DNA of 64,000 nt. Origin: an uncultured Candidatus Saccharibacteria bacterium. GTDB taxonomy: Bacteria; Patescibacteriota; Minisyncoccia; Phycocordibacterales; JAACPR01. A program made the position numbers and the translations under genes. Shown in pieces: positions 5,662-54,798 of the stretch. The notes under the pieces were generated by a model that saw nothing but the letters and a program-made list of their open reading frames with translations, searched no databases and was not told where the DNA came from. Numbering within the stretch: position 1 is the first letter of the stretch; each line of letters begins with the position of its first letter. Location of the stretch: positions 468 through 64,467 of the forward strand of contig CAZUCU010000001.1 in NCBI GenBank assembly GCA_964618845.1, in the 5' to 3' direction.

Positions 5662-5664
5662 ATT

Positions 5665-31635: not shown

Positions 31636-31710
31636 TCTTTTGTGTTTGTATTATTATTTTGTATTTTGTGCTTGGTACTTCGGATTTATTTTTTTACCTC
31701 TCCCCCAGAC

Positions 31711-31752: not shown

Positions 31753-31762
31753 ATGGAATAAT

Positions 31763-32200: not shown

Positions 32201-32458
32201 CGCAAGTCCGATAGTAAATTGTATAATAAGCCTACTTTTAACTGTAATCTACACATGCAACCCTATATGGAGTGTAGGTTTTGAGTTATTTTTAGATTAT
32301 GGATTTTTATTCCAATTCTATTATCTTCAATCAAATTTTATTGATTCAAGCCCTGTTTACAGGCCCCAAAACTAAAGTTCGGTGTGCTTAACCGAACAGT
32401 AAATATTGTACCATATTTTGAATTATAATCAACATTACACTATTAATTTAATGTATTG

Positions 32459-32818: not shown

Positions 32819-32887
32819 AGAACTTAGTATAAAACATTAAGGTTAAATTCTGATAAATAAAAGATTAAAAAATTATAAAACAAGATT

Positions 32888-33166
32888 ATGTCAAAAGTTA
32901 AAGCCGGTGGAACAGCTAAAAACCTCAGAGATTCAGGACCAAAATATTTGGGAGTAAAAATTTCTGACGGTCAAAAAGCCAAAAAAGGAAACATCATAGT
33001 AAAACAAAGAGGTACAAAATACCTTCCTGGGACAAATACAATGATCGGCAAAGATCATACTATTTTTTCAATTAAAGATGGGGTTGTTAAATTTTCAACA
33101 AAAAGAAAAACCAGATTTGATTCAAAAAAAGTTACAAGAAAATTAGTTGAAGTTATATCTAAATAA
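32888..33166 (+). CDS. rpmA: 50S ribosomal protein L27
   Basis: AGGTAKNLRDSGPKYLGVK ... KQRGTKYLPGTN signature. Confidence 0.9.
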   Translation: MSKVKAGGTAKNLRDSGPKYLGVKISDGQKAKKGNIIVKQRGTKYLPGTNTMIGKDHTIFSIKDGVVKFSTKRKTRFDSKKVTRKLVEVISK

Positions 33167-33182
33167 GTAAAGATTGATTTTT

Positions 33183-33614
33183 TTATTTTATTTCTAAAGT
33201 AAAACTTCCCTCTTTGTTTTTACTTTCCATAGGAATTTTATATATACCCACTTCTCTAATTTCTGGCATTTTAATTATTTCTTTTGCTTCTTTGTTTTCT
33301 ATAACCCGCAACACCTCGTCTAAATGAAGTTTAGAGAACATATGTCCCTTATCATTTTTTGCTACTCCAAGTTCAAAACTCTTACCATTTAATGAATCAA
33401 TAATCAAATTTAACTTTGCTATCTGGGTATTTTTTTCTTCTTCTAATGCAGACTTTTTTGTCTCAATGTTGGAAATTGCACTCTCTGAAGCTTCAATCGC
33501 TAATCCTTTTGGTAAAAGCAGGTTAAGAGCATAACCGGTCTTGACCTCTTTGATATCATCCTTTTTCCCCAAATTTAGTACATCTTTTAATAGAATTATT
33601 TTCATTCTGCTCAT
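33183..33614 (-). CDS. rplI: 50S ribosomal protein L9
   Basis: [37 protein letters not shown]-terminal domain of L9. Confidence 0.85.
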
Positions 33615-33619
33615 AGAGC

Positions 33620-34867
33620 CTACTTTAGCATTTCAATAGCTTTTTGCAACTGAATATCTATACCTTTATCAAATTTATCCTTATCAAATTTAACCTTAAA
33701 ATTAGGTTCTAATCCCCCATCCGAAATAGATTTGCCGTTTGGAGTTAACCATTTGGCAATGGTTACTTTTAAAGATGTCTCTCCATTTATACTTAATAAT
33801 TCTTGTACAGAACCCTTACCAAAGGTGGTTTCACCAACAAGTTTTGCTACGCCGTGTTCTTCTAATGCACCAGCAACTATTTCAGAAGCTGAAGCAGAAC
33901 CTCCATCAATTAAAACTACCATTTTCAAATTTTTGGTAAAAATATCATATCCTTTACTTCTAAAAATCTTTTGTTCCCCCTCATCTCCAAAATCTTCTAT
34001 TACTATTGATTTACCAACTGGTAAAAACCAGCTTGCAATATCAATTGCGCTCTCCAAAAAACCACCAGGGTTGCCTCTCAAATCTAAAATTAATTTATTT
34101 TTTTTCGATTTAATAAATTGTCTGAGAGCATTTCTAAAATCATAACTCGATGAAGAAGTAAAATTATATAAACTTATAACAAAAACATCATCAATAGTTT
34201 TTGTTTCAAGAGTAGGTATAGTTATCTTATCTCTCATAATTTCTATAAGAATTGGGTCTTTTTCTCCTTCTCTAATAATCGTAAGCCCAACCGCAGTTTT
34301 TTGGGGACCTCTTATTTTTTTTATTGCTTCATCAACAGTAATATCCATAGAGGTTTCTCCATCAATTGCAATTATTTTATCTCCGCTTTTTATGCCAGCT
34401 TTTTCTGAAGGAGAATTTTTAAGCGGAGAAACCACTGTTAAAAACCCATCTTTGAAACCGACCTCCATCCCAACCCCCTCAAATGTTCCAGAAATTGTTT
34501 CCTCAAATTGTTCACTTTCTTCTGGGGGTAAAAACACTGTGTATGGATCACCATAAGATTCAACTAATCCAGATATCGCTCCATAAATTTTGTCTTCATC
34601 CGAAATTTTTTCACCAGAGACAGAAACAAATTTTTCCTCTAAAAGATTGAAGGTTTTCCAAAATAGGTCTAAATTAATGGGTTCACTAGCACTCACCCCA
34701 TTGCTAATATGATTTTTGTTATTTCCAACAAAAAACCCGGTACCAAAAATAAGTACAAACAACATCAAACTAAAAACAATAGTGGCACTTTTTGTATAAA
34801 AATTTTTCATACGAGTATTATAGCAGAAATTTAAAGATTTGAGGATATAAAAAGATATCCCTTTCAT
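33620..34867 (-). CDS. ctpA: Carboxyl-terminal processing protease (S41 family, PDZ-containing)
   Basis: PDZ segment ([13 protein letters not shown]). S41 catalytic region (LRGNPGG ... GSASASEI). N-terminal TM. Confidence 0.85.
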
Positions 34868-34896
34868 GTTTTTGTCTTAGCATTTATAATATATTT

Positions 34897-35826
34897 ATGA
34901 TATATACTCGAAGACATAAAAATATTATTTGGATTGACTTAGATTCACCAACTAGAAATGAAGTTAGAGAACTGATTGAAAAATATGATATTGATCCAAT
35001 TGTTGCCGACGAACTTTTGATTCCGACTCTTAGATCAAGAGTTGATTTGCACGATAATTATATTTATTTAATTTTACATTTTCCTCAAAAAATAAAAGGT
35101 CATAAATACGAAAAAAATTTTAACAAAGAAACACAAGAAGTAGATTTTATTATTGGAAAAAATTTTATAATTACTGCTCGATATGGAGCAATTGATGCGC
35201 TTTTGGAATTTTCAAAAATTTTTGAAGCTAATTCTATTTTGGACAGAAGCAATATTGGAAAACATGCAGGATATGTATTTTATTATATGATTAGAAATAT
35301 TTATAAATCTATGTATGAGGAGATTCAAAATATGAGAGATAAAATCTCTGAATATGAAGAGAAGGTTTTTTCTGGGCAAGAAAGAGAGATGGTTCAAAGC
35401 CTCTCCCAAATGAATCGATTACTTTTGTATTTTAAAGAATCCCTTTTGTTTCATAAAGAAATTTTAATTTCTTTTGAAGAGGCGGGGAAAAAAAATTTTG
35501 AACCAGAATTTACTTACTATTTGCGAGCAGTATTGGGAGAATATTATAAAGTTCAAAATATTCTTGAAAGTTCGAGGGATTATCTTTCAGAAATAAGAAA
35601 TACCAACGACTCATTACTTTCAACTAAACAAAATGAATTTATGAAAATGATAGCAATAATTACTTTGCTAACCTTCCCCACCACTTTAATTTCAAATATA
35701 TTTAGTATGAATACTGAAAGTACACCAATTGTCGGTAAAATGAATGATTTTGTGATTATTGTTAGCATGATGTTTTTATCAGTTGCTATTCTATTTCTCT
35801 TTTTCAAGAAGAAGAGATGGTTTTAG
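34897..35826 (+). CDS. CorA-like divalent cation transporter
   Basis: Cytoplasmic alpha/beta domain followed by two C-terminal TM helices, with an MN motif (FSMN) at the first TM end, reminiscent of CorA GMN. Confidence 0.55.
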   Translation: MIYTRRHKNIIWIDLDSPTRNEVRELIEKYDIDPIVADELLIPTLRSRVDLHDNYIYLILHFPQKIKGHKYEKNFNKETQEVDFIIGKNFIITARYGAIDALLEFSKIFEANSILDRSNIGKHAGYVFYYMIRNIYKSMYEEIQNMRDKISEYEEKVFSGQEREMVQSLSQMNRLLLYFKESLLFHKEILISFEEAGKKNFEPEFTYYLRAVLGEYYKVQNILESSRDYLSEIRNTNDSLLSTKQNEFMKMIAIITLLTFPTTLISNIFSMNTESTPIVGKMNDFVIIVSMMFLSVAILFLFFKKKRWF

Positions 35827-35834
35827 ATTAAAAA

Positions 35835-37247
35835 ATGTTAAAGATAAAAAATACATTAACTGGAAAAATTGAGAATTTTGAGCCCTTAAAAAGGACATTT
35901 TGGGGCAAATCCAAAATCGGAATGTATAATTGTGGTCCAACTGTTTATAGTAAAGCTCATATTGGGAATTTGCGTGCATATATTTTTGCAGATTTAATAA
36001 GAAGAACTCTGGAATTTAATGGGTATAGAGTTAAACAGGTGATAAATATTACTGATGTTGGACACTTAACTTCAAATTCAGATGAGGGAGAAGATAAAAT
36101 TGAAGAACAAGCAAAAAAAGAGAATTTAAAAGCAAAAGAAATAACCCAAAAATATACTGACCTTTTTTTTTCTGATTTAGATAGATTAAATATTGATAAA
36201 AGCAAGATTTTATTTCCCAAGGCCACAGAACACATAAAAGAACAAATTGATATAATAAAAAAATTAGAAAAAAAAGGTTTTACTTATAAAATTTCTGATG
36301 GTATCTATTTTGATACTCTAAAATTTAAAGATTATGGAAAACTTGGAAAGATAGATATCAAAGGATTAGAGGGAGGTGCAAGAATTGAAGTAAATAAAGA
36401 AAAAAGAAATTCAACTGATTTTGCTCTTTGGAAATTTACTCCACGACAAAACTCGAGGCAAGGTGGCAGACAGCAAGAATGGAAATCTCCTTGGGGTATA
36501 GGTTTCCCTGGGTGGCACTTAGAGTGTTCTGCTATGAGCATGAAATATTTGGGAGAGACTTTTGATATTCACACGGGAGGAATTGATCATATTAACACTC
36601 ATCATAATAATGAAATTGCTCAATCGGAAAGCGCTACTGGAAAAGCTTTAGCAAAGTATTGGATGCATGTAAATCATATTCAAATAAACGGAGAAAAAAT
36701 TTCTAAATCAATAGGTAATGTGGTATATCTTGATGAACTTGAATCAAGGGGATATACTTCAATGAGTTATAAATATCTTTTACTTACCGCTCACTACTCT
36801 ACTCTTTTGAATTACACTGAGGAAAATTTAAGGGCTTCTCAAAAAGCTTTGTTTAGGATTTATAGTTTTCTTTTAGGAGTTACCAGTGATCAATTATCAG
36901 AGATCAGTGAAGATTATTATAAAAAATTTAAAGAAGCAATTAATGATGATTTAAATACGGCGAAAGCCATTGCAATTATTTTTGAATTACTATCAGATAA
37001 AGGAATCTCAAATCAAGATAAAAAAACAACAATATTGAAGTTTAATAAAGTTTTAAATTTGGGGTTTGATAATCCAATAATTTTAAAAACAGAAATACCA
37101 GAAGAAGTTTTAAACCTTGCAAATGAAAGACTAAAAGCGAGAAAAAATAAAGATTTTGTAGAATCAGATAAATTGAGAGAAAAAATAAAACATTTAGGTT
37201 TTGAAATAAAAGATGTCCCCGAAGGCTTTAAATTAGATAGAATATAA
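35835..37247 (+). CDS. cysS: Cysteine--tRNA ligase
   Basis: MYNCGPTVYSKAHIGNLRAY (HIGH) and KISKS. Zn-binding Cys. 470 aa. Confidence 0.9.
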   Translation: MLKIKNTLTGKIENFEPLKRTFWGKSKIGMYNCGPTVYSKAHIGNLRAYIFADLIRRTLEFNGYRVKQVINITDVGHLTSNSDEGEDKIEEQAKKENLKAKEITQKYTDLFFSDLDRLNIDKSKILFPKATEHIKEQIDIIKKLEKKGFTYKISDGIYFDTLKFKDYGKLGKIDIKGLEGGARIEVNKEKRNSTDFALWKFTPRQNSRQGGRQQEWKSPWGIGFPGWHLECSAMSMKYLGETFDIHTGGIDHINTHHNNEIAQSESATGKALAKYWMHVNHIQINGEKISKSIGNVVYLDELESRGYTSMSYKYLLLTAHYSTLLNYTEENLRASQKALFRIYSFLLGVTSDQLSEISEDYYKKFKEAINDDLNTAKAIAIIFELLSDKGISNQDKKTTILKFNKVLNLGFDNPIILKTEIPEEVLNLANERLKARKNKDFVESDKLREKIKHLGFEIKDVPEGFKLDRI

Positions 37248-37341
37248 AGACTATTTTTATCTTGAGATTTAATACATAAAATAACAAATAAAACAATGTG
37301 TTTTGATAAATTTGTCAAATTTGATTTTTCCCCAATTCATC

Positions 37342-37383
37342 CACTTTTCTTAAACTTTTCACTTCTCGCGGTTCTCTTCTCGC
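37342..37383. repeat. GAGAAGC-family motif cluster upstream of dnaB (reverse orientation relative to the copy upstream of dnaK)
   Basis: The reverse complement reads AGCGAGAAGAGAACCGCGAGAAGTGAAAAGTTTAAGAAAAGTGG. It shares GAGAAGTGAAAAGT with 15370-15385. Confidence 0.6.
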
Positions 37384-37401
37384 TATGATAACATTACATT
37401 T

Positions 37402-38763
37402 ATGAATTCATTAAAAATCCCACCACAAAGTCAAGAAAGTGAGAAAGCTTTAATTGGAGCAATTTTGCTTCGACCAGAAGCAATTTATGAAATTATGGAT
37501 ATGATTTCTCCCGAAGCATTTTATGCCACCAAAAATAAACTAATTTTCCAAACAATGCTTGAACTGATCAGTAAAGGAATAGAGATAGATTCTGTTTCTG
37601 TCTCCGAAAAACTTCGAGAAAAAGGAAATTTTGATAAAACAGGAGGAAAATCATATATAGCAGAACTTTTGGACTCTGTTCCCTCTTCCTCTAATATTAA
37701 ACATTATGCAAATATAATTTTAAAGAAAAAATTAATGCGAGATCTTTTAGAAGTAGCTGATCATTTATCTTTTCTGGGTTATGAAGAATCAAAAGAAATT
37801 GAAGAAATATTAGATGAAGCCGAAAAAAAAGTTTTCTCTGTTACAAATTTAAAAACTACAAAAAATTATATTGAACTCAAAAAAGCTCTTGGTGAAGCAT
37901 TTGAAAGATTGGATAGACTACATAAATCAAAAGAAGATTTAAGAGGTATACCTACTGGTTTTGCTGGGCTTGATAATTTACTCTCTGGATTTCAAAAATC
38001 AGATTTAATAATTTTGGCAGCTCGTCCCTCTATGGGAAAAACCTCTCTGGCTTTAGATATTTCAAGAAAAGTTGCATTAAATTATAAAATTCCTGTAATA
38101 TTTTTTTCTCTTGAAATGAGTCACGACCAACTGGTAGATAGGGTTTTGGCAGCTGAATCTGGTGTTAATTCTTTTAATATTAGACGAGGGAAGGGACTTA
38201 AAGAACAGGATTTTGAAAATATTGGTAATGCGATATCACGACTTTCTGAAGCACCGTTTTTTATAGAAGATACCTCTGGATTAAATATTATTCAAATGAA
38301 ATCAATGATTCGAAGAATTATTTCTGAAAAATTTAAAGATGGGGATAGAGGTTTAGTAGTTGTGGATTATTTACAACTTATGACACCAACAAATTCTCGA
38401 ATTGATAATACCGTAGCTCAAATTACAGAAATTTCTAGATCACTAAAAGGTATGGCAAAAGAATTTAGAATTCCCGTTATTGCTCTTTCACAACTTTCAA
38501 GAGCAGTAGAGTCAAGAGGTGGAAAACCTCGATTATCAGATCTGAGAGATTCTGGCGCAATCGAACAAGATGCCGACGTTGTTATGTTTATTCATCGAGA
38601 AGATAAATATAACGAAGAATCTAATAAGCCAAATATTGCGCAGATTCTAATTGAAAAACACAGAAATGGACCAACGGGTCGAGTTGATCTCTATTTTGAC
38701 GAAAAGAAAACAACCTTTGTTGATATAGATAAAACTCACAGTAATCTTCTTGAAAATTTTTAA
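37402..38763 (+). CDS. dnaB: Replicative DNA helicase DnaB
   Basis: SQESEKALIGAILL N-terminal domain. Walker A (ARPSMGKTS). RecA-like C-terminal domain. 453 aa. Confidence 0.9.
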   Translation: MNSLKIPPQSQESEKALIGAILLRPEAIYEIMDMISPEAFYATKNKLIFQTMLELISKGIEIDSVSVSEKLREKGNFDKTGGKSYIAELLDSVPSSSNIKHYANIILKKKLMRDLLEVADHLSFLGYEESKEIEEILDEAEKKVFSVTNLKTTKNYIELKKALGEAFERLDRLHKSKEDLRGIPTGFAGLDNLLSGFQKSDLIILAARPSMGKTSLALDISRKVALNYKIPVIFFSLEMSHDQLVDRVLAAESGVNSFNIRRGKGLKEQDFENIGNAISRLSEAPFFIEDTSGLNIIQMKSMIRRIISEKFKDGDRGLVVVDYLQLMTPTNSRIDNTVAQITEISRSLKGMAKEFRIPVIALSQLSRAVESRGGKPRLSDLRDSGAIEQDADVVMFIHREDKYNEESNKPNIAQILIEKHRNGPTGRVDLYFDEKKTTFVDIDKTHSNLLENF

Positions 38764-38772
38764 ATTTAAAAT

Positions 38773-39381
38773 ATGAATATTATTGACGAACTAACAGAAT
38801 TATTTAAGGAATTTCCCGGGATTGGTCCGCGTCAGGCCCGAAGATTTGTTTACTATTTACTTAGAAAAAACGGGGATTACATAAACAAAATAGTCACCCT
38901 CATTCCAGAACTGCGAAAAAAAACTAAAACTTGTAATGAGTGTTTTCGATTTTTTTCTTCCCCGTCTTCTAAATGTAGTATTTGTGAAAATAAAAACCGC
39001 AATTCAAAAATTTTGATGGTTGTTGCTCGAGATTCTGATCTTGAAAATATAGAAAAAACAGATACTTTTAATGGGTATTATTTTGTACTTGGTGGACTTT
39101 TGCCAGTACTTGAGAAAGATAGCAAAAAGCATATTAGACTTAATGAACTTTTAAAACTAATTTCTCAAAAAAAAGATCTTGGGGAAATAATTCTGGCCTT
39201 TCCAGTAAATCCCGAAGGAGATAACACTGCTCAATTTCTTAAAAAAGAAATTGAACAACAAATTCGAAATTCGAAATCCGAAATCCGAATTTCTACATTG
39301 GGAAGAGGACTTTCTACAGGATTAGAACTTGAATATTCAGACAAAGAAACAATCAAAAATGCACTACAAAATAGAAACTAA
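38773..39381 (+). CDS. recR: Recombination protein RecR
   Basis: FPGIGPRQARRFVYYL helix-hairpin-helix. Cys4 zinc finger. Toprim domain. The C-terminus contains repeat-derived IRNSKSEIRIS. Confidence 0.85.
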   Translation: MNIIDELTELFKEFPGIGPRQARRFVYYLLRKNGDYINKIVTLIPELRKKTKTCNECFRFFSSPSSKCSICENKNRNSKILMVVARDSDLENIEKTDTFNGYYFVLGGLLPVLEKDSKKHIRLNELLKLISQKKDLGEIILAFPVNPEGDNTAQFLKKEIEQQIRNSKSEIRISTLGRGLSTGLELEYSDKETIKNALQNRN

Positions 39382-41552: not shown

Positions 41553-41570
41553 GAATTTAAAAAAAGATTA

Positions 41571-41593
41571 GGCGTCGCGCTTCGCGCGACGCC
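41571..41593 (-). terminator. Intrinsic terminator: 10-bp GC-only stem GGCGTCGCGC / GCGCGACGCC followed by a T-run on the - strand
   Basis: Seen directly. Lies immediately downstream of the - strand ORF 41599-41880. Confidence 0.6.
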
Positions 41594-41598
41594 CCCTA

Positions 41599-41880
41599 TC
41601 AAATTCCTCCCCACTTGAAGAGCGAGTCTTTTTCTTCAAGTTTAGCCCTTCGTTTTGCTTCCCTCCTCCTTCTTACAAATTCAGAAATTGGTTTTTGGTT
41701 CCATTTTCCAAATTTTTTGAGATCGTTCTCTATTTTTTCCGCTCTCAAAAACCTGCCAGAAGGATTAGACTGAAGAGTACAATCTACAAAAATATCATCA
41801 GTCAACTCTTCGGGGACAGAACTTCCCCTTTTTGGTTTTTTCATTTTTTTGTTTTTGTGCTCTTTATTTAGAGAATACAA
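41599..41880 (-). CDS. Hypothetical small basic protein
   Basis: 93 aa. Locally elevated GC. A terminator lies downstream. Confidence 0.35.
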   Translation of the reverse strand: MYSLNKEHKNKKMKKPKRGSSVPEELTDDIFVDCTLQSNPSGRFLRAEKIENDLKKFGKWNQKPISEFVRRRREAKRRAKLEEKDSLFKWGGI

Positions 41881-41929
41881 TAAATACCCCTATTGTCAAT
41901 TTTTTCAAAATGTTTATAATTAAGGAGGT

Positions 41930-42241
41930 ATGAACCTTAAGGAAATAAACCCGAGTCGCCTTTCGAACATCGAATTGGCGAAAGTTATCGTTGCGGAAAC
42001 ATTTAAAATCACCGAGACAAGAGGCGAGAAAAAAATCGCCCAAATCGTTGACTTGGTGATGGGTCTCTTCATGTTTCAGGTCACTTCTTTTGAAGTACTC
42101 TTGGAGCGTTTTAGAAAGTACGGACCCGACCCTGATGCTCTCGAGATCATTAGGAAAAAGTTTCCACAAAAAGCGGAATACCTGTGCCAAGAAGCGGGTG
42201 TTCCATTTGAAAGTCAATCTCAATTTGACTTTCAAGATTAG
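41930..42241 (+). CDS. Hypothetical protein
   Basis: 103 aa. Followed directly by an intrinsic terminator at 42249-42287, which favours this frame over the overlapping - strand ORF. Confidence 0.4.
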   Translation: MNLKEINPSRLSNIELAKVIVAETFKITETRGEKKIAQIVDLVMGLFMFQVTSFEVLLERFRKYGPDPDALEIIRKKFPQKAEYLCQEAGVPFESQSQFDFQD

Positions 42242-42248
42242 CTCTTAC

Positions 42249-42287
42249 ACCTCGCTTGTCCCACAAGACAAGCGAGGTATTTTTATT
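42249..42287 (+). terminator. Intrinsic terminator: stem ACCTCGCTTGTC / GACAAGCGAGGT, then ATTTTTATTT
   Basis: Seen directly. Confidence 0.7.
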
Positions 42288-42314
42288 TATCAGAATCAGA
42301 CTCCATATCTTTAT

Positions 42315-43211: not shown

Positions 43212-43283
43212 GGCCCTATCGTCTAACGGTTAGGACAGCGCCTTCTCAAGGCGTAAATCCGGGTTCGATTCCCGGTAGGGTCA
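43212..43283 (+). tRNA. tRNA-Glu (anticodon CUC)
   Basis: Manual cloverleaf: acceptor GGCCCTA / TAGGGTC (one G-U pair), D-arm GTCT-AACGGTTA-GGAC, anticodon stem GCGCC / GGCGT with loop TTCTCAA (anticodon CTC), T-arm CCGGG-TTCGATT-CCCGG, discriminator A. Resembles canonical tRNA-Glu blocks (TCGTCTA..GG..AGGAC, GGTTCGAWTCC). Confidence 0.8.
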
Positions 43284-43364
43284 CATCATATTTTAGCTTT
43301 ATTTTAAGCCATTTTATTTTTGAAAAAGTTTTGTTTTCCGAATTTTTTGATATGATTATTTCAT

Positions 43365-43949
43365 ATGGAAAAACAACCAAGCGAAGTATATAAAGATGAA
43401 GCAGAAGAAACAAAAAAAGCTTTAGAGAACTTTTTTGATGATAATAGCGATTTCCCAACTGATGTTTCCTCTCTTTTGTACTCTCATGATGAACCTATCA
43501 TTAAAGATAATACAGAAGACCTGTTAATTTATGGAATAGATAAAATATTAAGAGAGTTAGTTATAATAGACGTTAATGAAGAAGATAACCAAGAAGTAAT
43601 TAAAAAATTACGAAATATTTTTCTTCACCAAGTTTCACATACACTCCTTTCATTATCATTTTTTGATGATAAATTAATTAAATCTAAACAATATATAGAC
43701 ATACTTAACAAAATATCTTACCTCGCTCTTTTATTTTGGGTTGATTTAAAAAGTACTGGAAAAGAAGATGTATTTATGAATTACAAAGATTTTTGTAAAA
43801 AATATGAAATAAAAGAATATGATTATTCAAAAGAATTTAATTTTGTTGAAGAATACACAAAAATTATTACTGAATTAAAAAAGTTTCTATTATCTAATGG
43901 AAAGAGGGAAGAAATAAAAAACAAAATTTTAAAAAATATAAACTTATGA
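43365..43949 (+). CDS. Hypothetical protein (first gene after the tRNA; island cargo)
   Basis: 194-aa ORF. Acidic N-terminus. No recognised motif. Confidence 0.45.
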   Translation: MEKQPSEVYKDEAEETKKALENFFDDNSDFPTDVSSLLYSHDEPIIKDNTEDLLIYGIDKILRELVIIDVNEEDNQEVIKKLRNIFLHQVSHTLLSLSFFDDKLIKSKQYIDILNKISYLALLFWVDLKSTGKEDVFMNYKDFCKKYEIKEYDYSKEFNFVEEYTKIITELKKFLLSNGKREEIKNKILKNINL

Positions 43950-44049
43950 ACATCGTAGATATTATATGATTGATAAATTCAATTCTTCTAAACTTTCTTT
44001 AATACAATCTCTATATCCCAAAAGTTCGGAAAGCCACACTTTGGGGTCA

Positions 44050-44151
44050 CCGCGTCAAACGCGGTTTCAGAACCGTATCAAACGGTATGGAACCACCAAA
44101 TTAACAAACCCCGTTTGACGGGGTCGCAGTGAAGGAGCCCGTCAGACGGGC
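44050..44151. repeat. Cluster of four small GC-stem hairpins (CCGCG-TCAAA-CGCGG, ACCGT-ATCAA-ACGGT, CCCCG-TTTGA-CGGGG, GCCCG-TCAGA-CGGGC) abutting the IS element
   Basis: Seen directly. A near-identical copy of the last hairpin occurs at 53239-53253 in the opposite orientation. Confidence 0.6.
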
Positions 44152-44196
44152 ACGTTCTCATCGCGTCAAAAATTCTCTAAAAAAGTTGATCGTTTT

Positions 44197-45078
44197 CTAA
44201 TCAATAGCTTGGAAACACCCAGACAATAATTGCATCGGAGTTTTGAGCTCAATTCCCATGTGCAATCTTTGCTCGTTATAGTATTTCAAATATTTCTCTA
44301 AAGCACAATTAATAACAGAAACGTTTCTTGGAAGAGTGTCTAAACACTCTTCTTGAAGTGTTCTGTTAAATCTTTCAATGTGTGCATTGTCATTAGGTTT
44401 TCCAATTCTAGTGTATCTATGGTTTCTCTTCACTCTGTCATAAAACCATTTTCCAAATTCACTTCCATGATCTGTTTGTATCATTTCAAAATTAAAAACT
44501 GATTGTCTCTCTGCTTCATTCAAAAACTCAACACTTATTGAAGAGTTTAATCTTTCATACGCTTTCGCAAAAGTGTTTCTAGAATAAACATCAATTAAGG
44601 TGAGAACATATATCCTAGTCTTCGGTCCTGTCATAAGGTGTATAGTGTCAATTTGAACCAAAGAACCTGGCTTTATTGGATATGGTCTATCAACAGGAGG
44701 ATGATATCTCTTCCAAGGAGATCTCTTTTTCATAAGTCCATGTCTATCAATTGTTCTTCTAACAGAGTTCAAAGAAACTTGGATATTTTCATTTAAAAGA
44801 TGTTGATGAACAACTTCACTTGTTCTCTTTGTGTCTAATCTGATTTTAATAATTCTTTTAACTACATTTTCTTCTAATTCCTTAGGATGATGATGTGGTC
44901 GTGAAGATTTGGTTGGTATTGGGTGAATACCGAGTTTTTCAGCTTTCTTTACCCATTTACTAATTGTTCCTGGACTTACGCCATATCTTCTAGCAACCGT
45001 TCTAACACCATATCCAATTCGAACCATAGTCGCAGCATCTCTACGAACTTTTGGCATGTTTGGATTATTTGTATACAT
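44197..45078 (-). CDS. IS481-type DDE transposase (rve integrase core)
   Basis: HTH (RYGVSPGTISKWVKK). The rve core spans LVQIDTIHL ... LIDVYSR ... IQTDHGSEF ... HIERFNRTLQEE. Confidence 0.85.
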   Translation of the reverse strand: MYTNNPNMPKVRRDAATMVRIGYGVRTVARRYGVSPGTISKWVKKAEKLGIHPIPTKSSRPHHHPKELEENVVKRIIKIRLDTKRTSEVVHQHLLNENIQVSLNSVRRTIDRHGLMKKRSPWKRYHPPVDRPYPIKPGSLVQIDTIHLMTGPKTRIYVLTLIDVYSRNTFAKAYERLNSSISVEFLNEAERQSVFNFEMIQTDHGSEFGKWFYDRVKRNHRYTRIGKPNDNAHIERFNRTLQEECLDTLPRNVSVINCALEKYLKYYNEQRLHMGIELKTPMQLLSGCFQAID

Positions 45079-45123
45079 AATGCTTGGATATTACTTTTTA
45101 ATGGAAGTGTTTCCAAGCTATTG
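44202..45123 (-). mobile_element. IS481-family insertion sequence (single-ORF DDE transposase with an N-terminal HTH) bounded by 17-bp terminal inverted repeats CAATAGCTTGGAAACAC
   Basis: Inverted repeats at 44202-44218 and 45107-45123 are exact reverse complements. The transposase ORF sits between them. Confidence 0.75.
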
Positions 45124-45147
45124 GGATATTACGGTTGATTTGACAAA

Positions 45148-45654
45148 ATGTTACGTCATGGTAATTTTACCTTAGACTTTAGCACAACACACACCATGAA
45201 AACATACGTACTGAATCGCTCGATATGTTCTCTTCTTGCATTAATCCCACTTTTGGGTTTTACGTATCTTGAGACCGTATATCATCTAATTCCCAGATTT
45301 AATGAAATATTTTCTCTAACACCAAAATCAACGAATTTGAATCACCTTGAACTAGTTTGGGTCCCGATCATCGCTTATATTTTGATTGCAACTATTGTTT
45401 ACCTCTTGTTAAAGATTTTCAAGAAACTGGAAGGTTTTAATAGAGAATGTGTCATTTGGGGTCTTACATGGGGTCTTATTATAGGCATCATCGCTGGTCT
45501 AATCTGGGGTCTGACGTCGGGTCTAATCGGTAGTGTCAATGGTGATCTCATTGGGAACATCATCTTGAATATCATTCTTGATCTCATCGTAGGCCTTATC
45601 TTGAGCCTCATCATAGGTCTAATTATAGGTCTCAAGCATGAATTCGAGTTATAA
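45148..45654 (+). CDS. Hypothetical membrane protein with degenerate GLI(x) glycine-zipper-like repeats
   Basis: GLIIGIIAGLIWGLTSGLIGSVNGDLIGNIILNIILDLIVGLILSLIIGLIIGL. The underlying DNA shows GGTCT(A/T)AT(C/T) periodicity. Confidence 0.45.
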   Translation: MLRHGNFTLDFSTTHTMKTYVLNRSICSLLALIPLLGFTYLETVYHLIPRFNEIFSLTPKSTNLNHLELVWVPIIAYILIATIVYLLLKIFKKLEGFNRECVIWGLTWGLIIGIIAGLIWGLTSGLIGSVNGDLIGNIILNIILDLIVGLILSLIIGLIIGLKHEFEL

Positions 45655-45773
45655 GCGTCAAGCTTAAATTCGAAAACAGTTTACACACAAAACGCACGAC
45701 CTTCGGGTACGGCGTTTTCTTTTTACATAACCACTGCAAATGTCCGACATTTGCAGTAAATGTACTTCATTTT

Positions 45774-45863
45774 CGTCATTCCCGTGAAGACGGGAATTCA
45801 TGCTTTTAAAGATATTAATAAAGCGTGGACCCCCGATACGGCTTCGGGGGTGACGATTATTTT
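45774..45863 (+). repeat. Copy B of the roughly 100-bp hairpin-containing repeat element (copy A at 19974-20070). Contains hairpins ATTCCCGT-GAAG-ACGGGAAT and CCCCCGA-loop-TCGGGGG.
   Basis: Direct alignment by eye with copy A. See findings. Confidence 0.55.
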
Positions 45864-45909
45864 GTTTGTTATTTTGTTGTGACTAGTACAGAGATGATAC
45901 TACAAAACA

Positions 45910-46401
45910 TCACGCCATTTTTAATTTTGATTTTAGGAGTCGTATGTTGTCGGTATTTCGATCTAATTGATTAGAATGTGAAAGCTGAATTTTTTTGATT
46001 TCTTGAACATCACTTTTTACTTCTTTCATATCTATTTTTAATTCGTGTATATCTTCTTCAACTCTATCAAATTGATTTTTGACAACAATTGTAAAATTTT
46101 CAAAATCTGTTCTTAATTCGCTTATTTCCGATTTCATAGAAACAATACTCTCTTTTATAGAAACAATATCTGTTTTTGTAGAAACAATACTCTCTTTTAT
46201 AGAAACAATATCTGTTTTCGTAGACACAATATCTGTTTTCATAGAAACAATATCTGTTTTTGTAGACAAAATATCTTCTTTCATTAAAGATATATCTTTT
46301 TTCATTGGATTAATCACTTTTTTTGTGTGAACAGCAAAAGCACCATTTATTGAAGTATTAACTATAAAAGAAATTTGTTTTAAATCATTTTTTGTTAACA
46401 T
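45910..46401 (-). CDS. Coiled-coil protein with about eight tandem heptad repeats (TKTDIVS / IKESIVS), encoded by 21-bp DNA tandem repeats
   Basis: Protein repeats KTDIVSMKTDIVSTKTDIVSIKESIVSTKTDIVSIKESIVSMKSEI. DNA repeats span 46135-46290. Confidence 0.5.
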   Translation of the reverse strand: MLTKNDLKQISFIVNTSINGAFAVHTKKVINPMKKDISLMKEDILSTKTDIVSMKTDIVSTKTDIVSIKESIVSTKTDIVSIKESIVSMKSEISELRTDFENFTIVVKNQFDRVEEDIHELKIDMKEVKSDVQEIKKIQLSHSNQLDRNTDNIRLLKSKLKMA

Positions 46402-46532
46402 AGTTTGATTCTATCATAAGTGAAAAACAGACTTATCAACATACCCCCCTCCATTTAATTAGTTTTTAATCTCTTTTTAATAAAAACACCGCCCATGTAT
46501 TTGATACTCTGGGCGGTGTTCAGCAAGGTAAA

Positions 46533-47576
46533 TTAATGACGAGGTTTTAAACCCTTCTTGATAGCATTGAGAATCTCTTTGCCAGTAAGAAGAGTCGGCT
46601 CAACAGCACAGTGATGTTCTGTGCCATTGTAAATCCGAGAAAAATTACTCTTCTCATGAACATGCCACATCAATAAATCGGGATGAGTTCCCTCTCCTGA
46701 AAGCCAACCACTTGGTTTAATTCCCCGTTTTTGAGCCTCAGCAAGCCGAAACTGATATGCTACAGCCTGCAGATGAAGACCGGAATTTCCCGAAGCTGAG
46801 ATCATCAGATAACCACCTGATTTGTTTTTGCAAACAACCAAGTCAACTATCTTTTCGGCCTCATTTCCGGAAAATGGATTTTCTGTCTGAAAAATCAGAA
46901 GTTTTTTGGGTCCTGCCCAAGTTTGGATTTCTCGAACTTTGAGTCCAGAAATTTCTTCTCGGGCTTTCTCCCTCAAAACTTCCGCTTCATCCAAAACATT
47001 TTTACCCCAAGAGAGCCATTCTTTGTCATTCTCCTGTTCCATCACTCCTGCTATACAGTGCAAAAGCATAGATCTCCAAGGATGAAGGGTTTTTGGGTTT
47101 GTTGCCCCCCTCTTAGCCATTGGATTATCACTTTCCCAGACGATGATGGCATCAATCGCCTGATTAGTCCAATCACGAACATCGCTCAGTGACTTCCCAA
47201 CTCGATAGGCAGTGACAACCACAGAGGCAAGTTCATCTTTGAACTTTCTACCGACTTTATCCTGCTCATGGACTTTCTCCACAAGCATAGACACAGCAGG
47301 ATTACCAGTAATTCCAAGATTCTCTGCCACCAAGAGAGTAGCCGATTTTGTGGCATTGTCTCCATGACCATCATATGGGCTTCCCGCACAATCAATAAAA
47401 CACTTGTTAGGATAATCCCTCCAAGTCTTATCGTCAGGGAAACCACCAACACAAAAAACTTCCCATCCAAATTTGCGTGATAACAAGTCACTGAATTTTT
47501 CCAGTAACCTGACCGCAAATAATTTGTCCAAATTTGGATGATAAGGAGTCACAACAAAATCATACTGACGAGACAT
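46533..47576 (-). CDS. GC-rich island cargo: hypothetical protein, tentatively a divergent DHH/DHHA1-family phosphoesterase
   Basis: Locally about 45-50% GC against a background near 30%. Weak motif resemblance to NrnA: YHPNLDKLFAV (motif I-like), CFIDCAGS (II-like), YDGHGDN (III-like), SGNSGLH (GGGH-like). Confidence 0.35.
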   Translation of the reverse strand: MSRQYDFVVTPYHPNLDKLFAVRLLEKFSDLLSRKFGWEVFCVGGFPDDKTWRDYPNKCFIDCAGSPYDGHGDNATKSATLLVAENLGITGNPAVSMLVEKVHEQDKVGRKFKDELASVVVTAYRVGKSLSDVRDWTNQAIDAIIVWESDNPMAKRGATNPKTLHPWRSMLLHCIAGVMEQENDKEWLSWGKNVLDEAEVLREKAREEISGLKVREIQTWAGPKKLLIFQTENPFSGNEAEKIVDLVVCKNKSGGYLMISASGNSGLHLQAVAYQFRLAEAQKRGIKPSGWLSGEGTHPDLLMWHVHEKSNFSRIYNGTEHHCAVEPTLLTGKEILNAIKKGLKPRH

Positions 47577-47682
47577 TTTTTCTCCTTTTTTGGGGTTGTT
47601 TCTTGCTCAATATCACCATGATAAAGAACTTCAAGTCGCCTTGATTAATAACACAATTTTTGAATTTTGTAAATACAAAATG

Positions 47683-47711
47683 GCCCCGACCCATTCCATG
47701 GGTCGGGGCCT
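47683..47711 (-). terminator. Intrinsic terminator: 12-bp GC-rich stem GGCCCCGACCCA / TGGGTCGGGGCC, T-run on the - strand
   Basis: Seen directly. Lies downstream of the - strand ORF 47720-48298. Confidence 0.7.
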
Positions 47712-47719
47712 AAAAAGAA

Positions 47720-48298
47720 CTAAGCCTCTGGCGCCTTTTTCTTACGCTTAGGCTTAGCAGGAGAAGTTTCCTCCAATGATGCCTGAGTGGCCATCATTGC
47801 CCTGTCCAGAGCCTCCTGGGCTTCTTTTGCGAGCCGAAAACCATTGTTTTGGATCGTCGGCTTACGCAGAGTTCTCCTCGAACTCAGAACTTGAAGCTCG
47901 TTGTTGACCCTTTCAACATCCGAGCCCCGAAGCCCCCTCTTTTGAGTAAGCCCTTTTGAAACCCTTCTAAAATAGGGTCCAAAAGAGGCCCAGGCAAACG
48001 CCTTATTTTTTCCATTCTCCAAAATCTTGGGAGTGGAAAAAACAACCACGTCTCCGGGCTCGACTCTTTCGACATCCCGTTCAAACCAAGACTCGCCCCT
48101 GGCCTGATGGAATTGATACTGACCAGAGAGCGCGATATAGACATCGCGATCCACTTCTGGACAGTACACAAAAGAAAACCCGTCCTCCGGAAAGGGGATG
48201 TCTTTTAGAAACCCCCAATGAACATGGACATGGTCCGGAAGACCCAGATCATCCAAGACCCCCGCAAAGAGGTCTTGAAAATTCTGAATGGTTAACAT
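47720..48298 (-). CDS. GC-rich island cargo: hypothetical protein with a Lys-rich C-terminal tail
   Basis: 192-aa ORF. High GC relative to the genome. No motif recognised. Confidence 0.45.
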   Translation of the reverse strand: MLTIQNFQDLFAGVLDDLGLPDHVHVHWGFLKDIPFPEDGFSFVYCPEVDRDVYIALSGQYQFHQARGESWFERDVERVEPGDVVVFSTPKILENGKNKAFAWASFGPYFRRVSKGLTQKRGLRGSDVERVNNELQVLSSRRTLRKPTIQNNGFRLAKEAQEALDRAMMATQASLEETSPAKPKRKKKAPEA

Positions 48299-48378
48299 AT
48301 TATTCTCCTGTTTTTCCTCCCAAAGTCTGCCCCTTTTGACAGATTGTTCGGTTGGTCTGCAAAAATTATACTCAATTT

Positions 48379-49671
48379 TCAGTTTTTGTCAATCCAAAAA
48401 TCTTCCTGCCTCACCAATAATTCCTTTGCTTTTTCTTTGTTTTCTATAACTTCTTTTACAATCTTTTCCATTCTCATTGTTTGAGAGCCTTTTATCAAGA
48501 CAATACTTCTTTTATCTAAAAGTTCTTTTAATTTAAAAACTAATTTCTCATGTGTTTCAAAAGAAAAAACTTTTTCTTTCTCCATTCCAGAAATTAATAC
48601 TTCTTCAACAATAAACTCCGCTCTTTTACCAATAGTTAATAAGTAATCAAATTTTAATTCACAAATTAATTTTCCGATCATTCTGTGTTCATTAGCAGTA
48701 TATTTTCCAAGTTCTGACATGTCACCTAAAACCACTATCTTTGGTTTGACATTTTTTATTTTTGACAAAACTTTTAATGCTTCTTCAACGGCAACAGGAG
48801 AAGAATTATAACTATCGTCTATTATTGTGGAATTATTAATGCCCTTTAAAATTTTCATTCTGCCTGGAGCAGTAACATAGTTTGCAATAGAATTTAACAT
48901 TTTCACTACATCTATTTCATTTGATATTCCGCAAGCAAAAGCTATTAAAATTGGATAGATATGTTGCTTTCCTAAAACTCCCAAAATTTTGAAAGGCATG
49001 GAATTGTTTCCAAAATTAATTTTAAAATTGACTCCAATTGGATATTTGTTTTCATAGATTATATCAATATTAGAAGCTTTTATATCCGCATCTAAATCAA
49101 TCCCATAGGTGATAACTCGACTTTTGATCTCGTTTTTTATCTCCATTATAAGAGGGTCATCAGCATTCAAAATGGCGTGACCATCTTTCTTAAGGCCTTT
49201 TATCATTTTTTTATCTTCATCATTTAATTCTTTTGGAGAAGAAAAATATTCAACATGAACAGGCACCTTCGGAAATCTGGTAAAAACAGCAATATCTATT
49301 TTTATCCAACTTATAAGTTTATCCATATCTTTTGGGTGATCAGTACCCAATTCCAAAACTAACCATTTAGGATATTTTTTATTAAATAAAACCAAAAATC
49401 CTTCAGAGATATTTATCAACCATTTAAATAAATTATGATATCCATTTTCTAATCCTAAAATAGTCAATGGAACTCCAATCTCACTATTAAAACTTTTTTG
49501 GTTTTTTCTTATGTATAGAGAACCAGACAAAGCAGAAAAAATAGCATCTTTTGCAGAAGTTTTTCCAACACTACCAGAAACACCAATTATTTTGGGTTTA
49601 AATCTCTTTAAAACCATTTTGGATTCTAATTTCAATATAAAAATGATAATTTTTTTTAATATTTCTTTCAT
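48379..49671 (-). CDS. murF: Mur ligase, most likely UDP-MurNAc-tripeptide--D-Ala-D-Ala ligase MurF (MurE not excluded)
   Basis: P-loop GVSGSVGKTSAKDAI. Mur ligase middle and C-terminal domains. Located after ftsI in the cell-division gene block. 430 aa. Confidence 0.7.
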   Translation of the reverse strand: MKEILKKIIIFILKLESKMVLKRFKPKIIGVSGSVGKTSAKDAIFSALSGSLYIRKNQKSFNSEIGVPLTILGLENGYHNLFKWLINISEGFLVLFNKKYPKWLVLELGTDHPKDMDKLISWIKIDIAVFTRFPKVPVHVEYFSSPKELNDEDKKMIKGLKKDGHAILNADDPLIMEIKNEIKSRVITYGIDLDADIKASNIDIIYENKYPIGVNFKINFGNNSMPFKILGVLGKQHIYPILIAFACGISNEIDVVKMLNSIANYVTAPGRMKILKGINNSTIIDDSYNSSPVAVEEALKVLSKIKNVKPKIVVLGDMSELGKYTANEHRMIGKLICELKFDYLLTIGKRAEFIVEEVLISGMEKEKVFSFETHEKLVFKLKELLDKRSIVLIKGSQTMRMEKIVKEVIENKEKAKELLVRQEDFWIDKN

Positions 49672-53006: not shown

Positions 53007-53160
53007 TTCATATATTTACCACTTTATCCCACTTGATTAATATTATAACCCACTATTTAACATTTTGCACAAATAGTTATCCACAGCATAAGACGAAGCG
53101 CAAAATAAAAAATTCAAAATTCAAAATAAAATTTATTTTCTTTTTTTAGTGAGAACTGAT

Positions 53161-53321
53161 CTTCCCAAAATAAAATTAAATATCTTTCGAGAACCGTGTT
53201 TGAGCGGGAGGATGATTATATTTTTTATAAAGCATATACCCCGTCTGACGGGGTGTAACGAAAATGGCAATCGTGTCTAGAGCGAGTTTTCGAGAAAGAT
53301 ATATAATTTTATTTTGGGAGG
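53161..53321. mobile_element. MITE-like element: about 34-bp imperfect terminal inverted repeats (CTTCCCAAAATAAAATTAAATATCTTTCGAGAAC) flanking about 90 bp that contain a CCCCGTCTGACGGGG hairpin
   Basis: Arms at 53161-53194 and 53286-53321 match in about 30 of 34 positions as reverse complements. The internal hairpin belongs to the CCCGT-loop-ACGGG family. Confidence 0.45.
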
Positions 53322-53322
53322 A

Positions 53323-54798
53323 TTATTCGAGTCGTGGTTTCATTAAAGGAAAGAGTTGTGTTTCTCTTATGGGTTTATCTATCAAAAAAGCAAAGAGCCT
53401 TTCTCCTACTCCAAAACCAAAATTAGGTGGCATTCCATATTCAAGCATTTCAACAAATTCATTGTCACTCATCATTGCTTCTTTGTCTCCTTCCTTTATT
53501 AATTTATTTTGAATATCAAAACGATTTTTTTGATCAATAGGATCATTTAACTCTGCGTGGGCTCTACCAATTTCACTTCCAGCAATTATAATCTGAAACA
53601 TTTCTGTCTTTCTATTATCTTTTTCGTTTTCTTTTGAAAGTGGAGCAACGAGTTTTGGATGATTTACCAAAAAAACAGGACCTGAAATGTTTTTTCTACA
53701 ATATTTCCAAAGAGCATCGGTCATTCTTTCTTTGTTTTTTCCTTCAAATTTTATTTCCAATTTTTCAAGAACTTTTTCCATTTCATTTTCATTTGCTTCC
53801 AAAACATCAACTCCTGTTTGTTTTTTAACTTCATCAACATAATCAATTTCTTTCCACTCAGAAGCCAAATCAAATTTATGACCTCTTGTTTTAAACTTAG
53901 TTTTTCCAAAAACATCTTCCGCAATTTTTATATATAAATCTCTAACAAGCTTTTTCCCCTCTTCCAAATTCATATAGGAAGCATAAAATTCCATATTAGT
54001 AAATTCTTGTAAGTGTTCTGCGCTCCCCCCTTCATTTCTAAAAATCCTTCCTATTTCAAAAGTTCTTGGAAATCCAGCTGCCATTAATCTTTTTTGCCAA
54101 AGTTCACCAACAGAAATTCGAAGATATATATCTATATCAAAATCATTATGATGAGTTTGAAACGGTCTTGCCTCTGCTCCTCCTGTTGTTATTTCCAAAT
54201 ATGGAGTCTCTACTTCTAAAAAATTTTTATTTAGCAAAAACTCTCTCATTGTTTGCCAAAATTTTGCTTTTTTGTAGAAAATCTTTTTTGCGTCATCATC
54301 AAACAATAAATCTAAATATCTTTTTCTAAATCTTTCATCTTCGTCTTTTATTCCATAAAAACTATCGGGAATTGGAAGAAGGGATTTGGTCAAAATTCTC
54401 CAAGATACAACATCCAGACTTTCTTGCCCAGATTTTGTAATAAAAGGTTTTCCTTTTACTTCAATAAAATCTCCAATGTCTACAGTGTCTTTAAAAAGAA
54501 TAAAGGCATCTTCTATTTCTTTATCAAAATAAGAAATATTGTTTTCTTTTTTTAAAACTATTTGAAATTTAGAGGTACCATCAAATATATCGACAAATAT
54601 TATCGCCCCTTGTCCACGTTGAGACATTATTCTACCAACAACTATTAGCTCTTGATTTTGTAATTTATCAAAATAATCAACAATCTCTTTGAGATTGTGG
54701 GTTTTTAATGACTTACTTGGATAAACATTTATCCCCAAAGTTTCTAATTTTTTTCTTTTTTTGAGCCTTATGGCTCGTAATTCTTCATGTGATGCCAT
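53323..54798 (-). CDS. lysS: Lysine--tRNA ligase (class II)
   Basis: N-terminal OB fold. Motif 2 FEIGRIFRNEG. Motif 3 region. 491 aa. Confidence 0.9.
   Translation of the reverse strand: MASHEELRAIRLKKRKKLETLGINVYPSKSLKTHNLKEIVDYFDKLQNQELIVVGRIMSQRGQGAIIFVDIFDGTSKFQIVLKKENNISYFDKEIEDAFILFKDTVDIGDFIEVKGKPFITKSGQESLDVVSWRILTKSLLPIPDSFYGIKDEDERFRKRYLDLLFDDDAKKIFYKKAKFWQTMREFLLNKNFLEVETPYLEITTGGAEARPFQTHHNDFDIDIYLRISVGELWQKRLMAAGFPRTFEIGRIFRNEGGSAEHLQEFTNMEFYASYMNLEEGKKLVRDLYIKIAEDVFGKTKFKTRGHKFDLASEWKEIDYVDEVKKQTGVDVLEANENEMEKVLEKLEIKFEGKNKERMTDALWKYCRKNISGPVFLVNHPKLVAPLSKENEKDNRKTEMFQIIIAGSEIGRAHAELNDPIDQKNRFDIQNKLIKEGDKEAMMSDNEFVEMLEYGMPPNFGFGVGERLFAFLIDKPIRETQLFPLMKPRLE

Follow-up and report, generated by a model that had tools for sequence, protein, structure and literature searches.

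How did a run of six genes come to lie between tRNA-Glu(CUC) and murF in the genome of an uncultured Candidatus Saccharibacteria bacterium, and what does the gene for a 347-aa protein among them encode? We approached these questions in a 64,000-nt stretch of contig CAZUCU010000001.1 (positions 468 to 64,467; hereafter the window), of which the interval between the tRNA and murF takes up about 5 kb. A preliminary description of this DNA, made from the sequence by eye, had read the interval as one horizontally acquired island next to the tRNA, and its items were re-examined here. The tRNA, the open reading frames (ORFs), the palindromes, the insertion sequence (IS), the GC-rich genes, the terminators and murF that it named were all confirmed in position. 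We favor a different reading of their history, at a probability of roughly 0.6: positions 43285-48378 would form a variable region built piecemeal at the 3' border of a division and cell wall (dcw) mini-operon, with the gene of the 347-aa protein, which is DHH-like, as part of that process.

Ancestral arrangement of murF and tRNA-Glu

The interval is bounded on the left by tRNA-Glu(CUC) (43212-43284, + strand; Rfam tRNA model, 63.6 bits), the sole tRNA identified by ARAGORN in the window, and on the right by murF (48379-49671, - strand), recognized by Pfam Mur_ligase_M and Mur_ligase_C and by synteny in relatives. This murF is the last gene of a conserved mraZ-rsmH-ftsL-ftsI-murF block, the dcw mini-operon, and the core genome resumes there, as had been proposed. 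Scans of genomes and metagenomes anchored on MurF recovered only distant relatives from the Candidate Phyla Radiation (CPR), labelled Saccharibacteria, Kaiserbacteria or Liptonbacteria, at 35-49% identity; the best metagenome and genome matches were 55% (partial) or 49% identical. All of these MurF-anchored relatives keep the mraZ-rsmH-ftsL-ftsI-murF block in synteny. The closest relative, L022 (MurF 67% and RsmH 74% identical), was found through the context of its homologue of the 347-aa protein.

In five of the relatives (L009, L011, L012, L016 and L033), murF is followed on the same strand by tRNA-Glu(CUC) at a distance of 13-520 bp, and this order was seen in every relative that has enough sequence 3' of murF. 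In the window, the tRNA lies 5.1 kb from murF and on the opposite strand. The comparison shows that murF followed directly by a co-directional tRNA-Glu(CUC) is the ancestral layout. Since the relatives keep the two genes adjacent, the interval is derived, and insertion at the tRNA 3' end alone cannot give the window layout because the tRNA is both 5.1 kb away and inverted. A comparison with related genomes, suggested in the preliminary description, therefore gave a divided answer: the region is missing at the murF-tRNA junction in the five distant relatives, and L022 has a homologue of the 347-aa protein in place.

The signs of site-specific insertion were looked for between the tRNA and murF. 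A direct repeat of the tRNA 3' end, which had been anticipated at the far boundary, is absent up to murF; the best match was 12/20, and 198/200 shuffles did as well. No ORF of the interval contains a tyrosine or serine recombinase domain; an integrase is missing, and there is only a DDE transposase.

Mosaic composition of the interval

The window has a GC content of about 30% throughout; of its 64 one-kb bins, that at 47-48 kb has the most GC (44.7%). Against a background of 49 genes (GC 29.5 +/- 2.7%; GC at third codon positions, GC3, 18.8 +/- 2.4%), three of the six genes in the interval are foreign in composition and three are native-like, forming a patchwork rather than a block. The foreign group consists of the GLI-repeat ORF (45148-45654, + strand; GC3 z-score +8.1, codon-fit z-score -11.8), the 347-aa gene (46533-47576, - strand; +7.1 and -7.8) and the 192-aa gene (47720-48298, - strand; +13.2 and -14.0). 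The native-like group, within z +/-2, consists of the 194-aa ORF (43365-43949, + strand; -1.4 and 0.0), the transposase gene (44197-45078, - strand; +1.8 and -0.2) and the coiled-coil gene (45910-46401, - strand; -1.5 and +1.7). The codon-usage check proposed for the island thus separates half of its genes from the other half. The two genes described as clearly GC-richer are so, with 42.8% for the 347-aa gene and 49.6% for the 192-aa gene. The statement that the composition turns foreign right after the tRNA did not hold, since the 43.4-44.0 kb segment just past it has only 20-26% GC, below the window average.

Predicted fold and motifs of the 347-aa protein

Sequence searches with the 347-aa protein were almost silent. 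No match was found in four profile libraries (Pfam, NCBIfam, PHROGs and PADLOC) or among PDB sequences, a word-indexed protein search returned only the protein itself, and an alignment query returned only 8. An exhaustive HMMER scan of 1.84 billion cluster representatives identified 105 of them at E<=1e-3, the best being 39% identical. An AlphaFold model based on a 42-sequence alignment reached a predicted local distance difference test (pLDDT) score of 94.2 and a predicted template modelling (pTM) score of 0.91, compared with a pLDDT of 35.5 from the single sequence. The model has a two-domain DHH + DHHA1 fold with a long helical insert at about residues 130-210. Structurally, it comes closest to RecJ/GAN/Cdc45 and a PAP phosphatase, while NrnA, DhhP and GdpP score lower. 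Foldseek agrees on the DHH fold, and its matches in the viral library, from giant viruses and jumbo phages, are generic DHH phosphohydrolases. When the family profile was compared with PDB sequences, only designed helical repeats were returned. The resemblance to a DHH/DHHA1 phosphoesterase that had been noticed by eye is thus upheld by the fold of the predicted structure and not by a sequence-level match to Pfam DHH, DHHA1 or UPF0160.

The motifs were counted over 111 family sequences, in which D17 (106/111), D69 (105/111), H71 (108/111) and D106 (107/111) are conserved. Motif I reads N15-L-D17 in the window protein rather than DxD, and HxD, DxD and NxD occur in 75, 8 and 6 of the 111 sequences, respectively. 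Motif II provides D62 within FIDCAG, a position held by Asp in 26/111 and by Gly in 82/111. Motif III is D69-G70-H71 instead of DHH (in the family DEH 62, DDH 18, DHH 14 and DGH 6-7 of 111), and D106 of motif IV is present. A near-invariant loop, N317-G318-(S/T)319, would correspond by its position to the GGGH of DHHA1. Two distant family members, P0047 and P0060, carry FDHH at the motif III column (GGGRFDHHGK), and their alignment to the family spans 300 columns with 99.9% probability; because these canonical-motif members align to the family, its motifs can be anchored internally to those of DHH proteins. In P0047, the complete DHH-like module is fused to a C-terminal 2H/LigT phosphoesterase (41.9 bits vs a cutoff of 27), and P0060 is likewise fused. 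Residues co-vary across motif I (first His and ligand residue), motif II and the central position of motif III, with the combinations H..H/G/E-or-D in 76 sequences, P..H-or-Q/D/H in 12 and P..N/D/G in 7. The last combination defines the clade of the window protein (signature NxD/D/DGH/D), whose seven members (P0001-P0006 and P0008) retain D17, D62, D69, H71 and D106 and, on the DHHA1 side, R277, E280, W304, N317 and G318.

These features set the protein apart from the known groups of similar fold. It differs from the RecJ/GAN/RecJ-Cdc45 branch in showing no detectable sequence similarity, in having no oligonucleotide/oligosaccharide-binding (OB) or extra domains, and in carrying NxD, DGH and NG(S/T) in place of DxD, DHH and GGGH, respectively. 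Stand-alone DHH-DHHA1 enzymes of the NrnA/PAP phosphatase/PggH type differ from it in that their Pfam and NCBIfam models miss it, and it is further distinguished by its altered motifs and its helical insert; the family, moreover, is sporadic, CPR-restricted, anomalous in GC and very fast in divergence. A third comparison is with MYG1/UPF0160, whose motif I is apparently H-x-D-E, the form that dominates the 347-aa family. As a DHH-motif phosphoesterase, MYG1 is a functional analogue of the family and not a demonstrated relative; in place of the DGH of the window protein it has the canonical DHH triad, and no family member matches Pfam UPF0160. MYG1 has been described as a 3'-5' RNA exonuclease modelled on RecJ (PMC6582341).

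Distribution, divergence and GC excess of the family

Eight metagenome contigs from several samples carry the 347-aa gene in the same context with 0-3 mismatches, base differences that are too few for a ratio of nonsynonymous to synonymous substitution rates (dN/dS). The family as a whole is sparse (~105 clusters among the 1.84 billion representatives) and is absent from L009-L021. The window and the other loci each carry one copy of the gene, and every context retrieved is of CPR type with housekeeping neighbours. Within the window clade, it lies after murF in the window and in L022, where it starts 110 bp 3' of murF, before mraZ in L023, L025 and L033, and between tgt and uvrB in L027. The copies at dcw borders are always co-directional with the operon. 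Family loci elsewhere than at dcw borders are L024, L027, L030 and L031.

The surroundings of individual members add some detail. In L022, two small paralogous ORFs for membrane proteins (88 and 70 aa) come next after the DHH-like gene, and after them a gene for a 364-aa protein that carries a prepilin N-methylation motif (5079-6650); none of the ORFs past the DHH-like gene resembles anything in the window interval. In L030, the family member P0111 (7674-8957) lies 254 bp from tRNA-Lys(UUU), and a separate LigT-like gene is found four genes away. The gene of the fused protein P0047 (L034, 44-1690) adjoins ftsH.

The DHH-like clade was shown to diverge far faster than the core genes that flank it. 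Its copies are 30-38% identical even where the core proteins of the hosts are 80-90% identical. In L025 and L033, for example, the MraZ proteins are 90% and the RsmH proteins 80% identical, and the DHH-like proteins just 38%; nucleotide similarity between these two loci (72.5%) has a sharp onset some 80 bp upstream of mraZ. Between the window and L022, the copies show 37% identity, compared with 67% for MurF.

High GC characterizes the family as a whole. The gene exceeds its neighbours in 8/9 measurable loci, by +5.5 to +14.6 GC points and +11 to +23 GC3 points, and it is the highest-GC3 ORF in six loci. The copy in L022 has 47.6% GC against 33.1%, and in L030, the GC-richest host, the values are 57.1% and 46.7%. 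Gene GC and host GC are partially correlated (r ~0.65). Because the excess is family-wide, the high GC of the 347-aa gene cannot date its acquisition in this genome. We hypothesize that recurrent allele replacement together with GC-biased conversion could produce such an excess.

An orphan gene between murF and the DHH-like gene

The 192-aa protein has no homologue in a 5.8-billion-protein index, in viral contigs, phages or plasmids, or among the ORFs of 20 related loci. The PDB gave one chance match (E 1.1), and Pfam gave nothing at E<=10 for the whole protein or for its two halves. The gene is also absent from L022 and from the neighbourhoods of 10 other family members. As no copy stands beside other family members, it is not a conserved partner of the 347-aa gene, contrary to the pairing that had been suggested.

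From its signals, the 192-aa gene looks like a real, autonomous unit. A promoter of the form TTGACA-N16-TATAAT, with 12/12 matches to the sigma-70 consensus, lies on the - strand (48392->48365), where it overlaps the murF stop and is directed into the 192-aa gene. An AGGAG Shine-Dalgarno sequence stands 5' of the start codon, and the GC of the codon positions follows a coding-like order (GC1 > GC3 > GC2). Downstream, the terminator scan located a strong intrinsic terminator on the same strand (47710->47682) with a 13-bp stem that includes 10 G-C pairs. The predicted protein combines an acidic N-terminal part (isoelectric point, pI, 5.0) with a basic C-terminal tail (pI 10.7). The 347-aa gene has a likely terminator of its own, a GC-rich hairpin with a T-run on the - strand (46488-46525), which reads CACCGCCCA...TGGGCGGTG followed by TTTTT and has a loop too long for the terminator scan. 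The GC-rich terminators attributed to these genes are therefore present.

An IS481-like element

A 943-bp insertion sequence, probably of the IS481 family, occupies 44191-45133 (- strand). Its transposase ORF (293 aa; 44197-45078) has the rve and rve_3 domains of Pfam and an N-terminal helix-turn-helix (HTH). The best of all IS models in NCBIfam was that of IS481 (NF033577), which aligned over positions 11-283 of 284 with E 3.3e-55 and a score of 187.6 bits vs a cutoff of 224. Perfect inverted repeats of 17 nt, as given in the preliminary description, were located at 44202-44218 and 45107-45123, inside imperfect ends of 27/28 nt, and the assignment to the IS481 type made there agrees with the best model, below the cutoff of that model. 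Read outwards, both ends begin with CGT and are flanked symmetrically by GTTGAT (44185-44190 and 45134-45139). This hexamer is probably a 6-bp target duplication, although a common 6-mer occurs by chance in 12% of random 20-nt window pairs. The empty site before insertion would then have been AAAAAAGTTGATTTGACAAAATG.

The element resembles IS481-family elements in its single DDE (rve) transposase with an N-terminal HTH, in its best model, in its terminal inverted repeats and in the probable 6-bp duplication. It departs from them in a score under the NCBI cutoff, a length of only 943 bp, a single visible copy and the CGT termini. The termini of IS481 start with TGT. The exact transposase protein has no record elsewhere.

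Proposed history of the variable region

In the history that we favor, the 347-aa gene would be an accessory gene rather than a one-off recent import, and its alleles would turn over quickly, either through recombination or replacement with the conserved flanks as anchors or because the gene evolves very rapidly. Later, the orphan 192-aa gene would have been added between murF and the DHH-like gene, equipped with a perfect promoter and a terminator of its own. The IS481-family element would then have transposed into the hairpin-rich intergenic region, and a rearrangement would have left the tRNA inverted. One consistent course is an insertion between murF and the tRNA followed by an inversion of the tRNA-proximal ~43.2-46.45 kb; undoing this inversion would restore the order murF->192->347->tRNA-Glu. 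No repeats were found at the putative inversion joints.

Several points weigh against this reading. The MurF scans yielded no near-identical genome without the region that could serve as an empty site, and the L022 contig stops 3 kb past murF with no tRNA in that stretch. With relatives this remote (MurF at most 67% identical), the order and number of events are reconstructed rather than observed. At the sequence level, neither the window protein nor the 42 members matched Pfam DHH (PF01368), DHHA1 (PF02272) or UPF0160 at E<=0.01, one family member reaching Pfam DHH at E 0.22, and hhalign of the family against Escherichia coli RecJ gave nothing (probability 0.5%). The window clade is without two of the usual metal-ligand positions (H/D replaced by N15 in motif I, and E/H by G70 in the middle of motif III), and with these altered ligands the protein could be catalytically impaired. 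The substrates that seem likely, namely short oligonucleotides, 3'-phosphorylated nucleotides or cyclic-phosphate nucleotides, are conjectural throughout.

Two other histories were weighed against the piecemeal one. The reading of the preliminary description, a single genomic island inserted site-specifically at the 3' end of tRNA-Glu with the six genes as its cargo, is largely refuted, and we regard it as highly improbable. As in tRNA-linked islands, the region adjoins the 3' end of a tRNA, is missing at the junction in five relatives and contains a mobile element, here IS481-like, together with compositionally atypical, GC-rich genes; to this extent the interval is indeed non-ancestral. It differs from such islands in having neither an integrase nor an attachment (att) repeat of the tRNA 3' end. 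Its composition is mosaic, with three of the six genes native. Compared with the ancestral layout, the tRNA has the opposite orientation, so its 3' end originally faced away from the interval, and a DHH-like homologue already stands after murF in L022, with which the content is thus partly common in place. It is also possible, though unlikely, that a donor of higher GC recently supplied this genome with the 192-aa and 347-aa genes in a single event and that the L022 copy is an independent import into the same hot spot. The strong deviation of both genes (GC3 z-scores of +7 to +13, codon-usage z-scores of -8 to -14), the low identity of the window and L022 copies beside that of MurF (37% vs 67%), the sporadic distribution of the family, and a promoter and terminator for each gene would all fit such an import. 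Yet all dcw-border copies share the NxD/D/DGH/D signature and have related hosts. The gene exceeds its host in GC even in the GC-richest one, L030 (57% vs 47%), so the excess is not simply a donor signature, and its GC partly tracks that of the host (r ~0.65). The eight contigs that carry the genes with 0-3 mismatches come from different samples, which indicates that the genes are fixed in the population.

Possible function of the 347-aa protein

For the 347-aa protein, the most probable function is that of a phosphoesterase dependent on divalent metal, and its substrates would probably be of nucleic-acid origin. The predicted metal or catalytic residues are D17, D62, D69, H71 and D106, and the NG(S/T) loop on the DHHA1 side would be the phosphate-binding element. 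The 2H/LigT fusion in P0047 points to RNA-end, cyclic-phosphate or oligonucleotide chemistry. A defence or anti-defence context, as had been considered, found no support: PADLOC gave no match for the 347-aa or the 192-aa protein, and none of the 11 family neighbourhoods, which are of a housekeeping kind, contains defence genes.

The window-clade protein might instead be a non-catalytic scaffold of DHH fold like Cdc45, a view that we hold to be quite unlikely. All seven clade members have N in motif I (for H/D) and G in the middle of motif III (for E/D/H), and Cdc45 and GAN are among the top structural matches. An active phosphoesterase is nevertheless judged likelier because the ligand residues and those of the DHHA1 side are retained, from D17, D62, D69, H71 and D106 to R277, E280, W304, N317 and G318. 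The clade has also gained the canonical Asp of motif II, which is missing from most of the family; this gain suggests an exchange of ligands rather than decay, and Asn, the residue in motif I, can ligate metal. More doubtful still is the proposal that the protein degrades cyclic oligonucleotides or other signalling nucleotides in defence or anti-defence, or cyclic di-AMP (c-di-AMP)/pApA for cell-wall homeostasis. The DHH/DHHA1 fold is common to PggH, GdpP, DhhP, Pde2 and NrN, some members are fused to a 2H phosphoesterase, divergence is very fast, and the gene recurs beside a cell-wall and division operon. These points stand against the absence of any PADLOC or PHROGs match and of defence genes in the 11 neighbourhoods, and against structural matches that are best for RecJ/GAN/Cdc45 and a PAP phosphatase rather than for cyclic-dinucleotide phosphodiesterases, with generic DHH phosphohydrolases as the viral matches.

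Other features of the locus

Of the remaining genes, the 194-aa ORF (23.8% GC) has no assigned function and no match in Pfam, NCBIfam, PHROGs or PADLOC. The GLI-repeat ORF (168 aa) encodes a hydrophobic sequence with a grand average of hydropathy (GRAVY) of 0.99 and has no family match in Pfam; its codon fit is the second-worst in the window after that of the 192-aa gene, and its coding status is doubtful. Its repeat part is also open in an antisense frame (45399-45635, - strand) of 78 aa rich in R, P and M. The heptad-repeat gene for a coiled-coil protein (163 aa) was confirmed at 45910-46401 and contains a 21-nt unit in about 7-9 tandem copies. Six of the eight independent metagenome assemblies end exactly at position 46189, inside this array, which is consistent with heterogeneity in repeat number or with assembly collapse.

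Two clusters of hairpins lie between convergent genes. The cluster of GC palindromes reported earlier is real: hairpin cluster A (~44040-44165) consists of 4-5 GC stems that resemble repetitive extragenic palindromes (REPs), has an RNA fold z-score of -4.7, and shares a CGTCARACG core found 4 times in the window vs 0.02 expected from shuffles. The second cluster (45689-45850) contains four hairpins with a fold z-score of -6.3, including terminator-like stems at 45689-45718 and 45821-45847 and a perfect 11-bp stem at 45733-45757. It had been called repeat copy B; no convincing copy A was found in the window, the sole match being 40 nt long and 82% identical at 20023-20061. One further hairpin of this cluster, ATTCCCGTGAAGACGGGAAT (45778-45797), fits ATTCCC-N8-GGGAAT and occurs once here. 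The pattern is that of the Neisseria dRS3 repeat, and the resemblance is almost certainly coincidental.

A 165-bp intergenic element (53159-53323) lies upstream of mraZ, with 35-nt inverted arms (53159-53193 and 53289-53323) that are 89% complementary. The arms enclose the hairpin CCCCGTCTGACGGGG, whose core is the same as that of the hairpins at 44053, 44112 and 44140. The arrangement may represent a REP-like element or a miniature inverted-repeat transposable element (MITE), or else a structured leader, and Rfam gave only sub-threshold generic hairpin matches for it. A conserved hairpin upstream of mraZ was considered and rejected, since CCGTYWRACGG was matched elsewhere only in L012, within the coding sequence of a LysRS-like protein, and this match is due to chance.

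On the other side of the tRNA, 41560-42300 is mildly enriched in GC (36-39.5%) and has overlapping ORFs on both strands, among them 41864-42235 (- strand, GC3 0.476) and 41930-42241 (+ strand), with no Pfam match. The variable region may thus reach leftwards past the tRNA. The cumulative GC skew has a peak and plateau at about 31000-39000, where gene orientation changes from mostly + to mostly -. Skew and gene orientation suggest that the replication terminus lies within a few kb of the variable region.

Discussion

As an island, the locus would be ordinary, with an IS and accessory genes at a tRNA/operon junction. The 347-aa family is of wider interest as a branch of the DHH superfamily that is invisible to Pfam, NCBIfam and PDB sequence searches and has so far been found in CPR bacteria only. 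Its co-varying metal-ligand replacements, its recurrence at dcw borders, its extreme divergence and its GC excess of 5-15 points in hosts of 30-47% GC deserve attention. Taken alone, the GC excess would have been read as recent horizontal transfer, and the family-wide pattern makes that inference unsafe here.

A more speculative proposal, which we consider improbable at present, is that the DHH-like gene is a replaceable 'conflict cassette' of CPR episymbionts. Its alleles would be continually swapped by recombination via the conserved flanks, the phosphoesterase at the dcw border would target nucleotide signals or RNA ends in conflicts between host and symbiont or with phages, and the orphan 192-aa gene with its strong promoter would be a newly recruited partner in this genome. 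If true, this would explain the 30-38% identity between copies of close hosts, the sharp breakpoints in similarity and, through GC-biased gene conversion, the GC excess. CPR bacteria rely on salvaged nucleotides, so an undescribed nucleotide or oligonucleotide phosphoesterase in these organisms could matter for their physiology.

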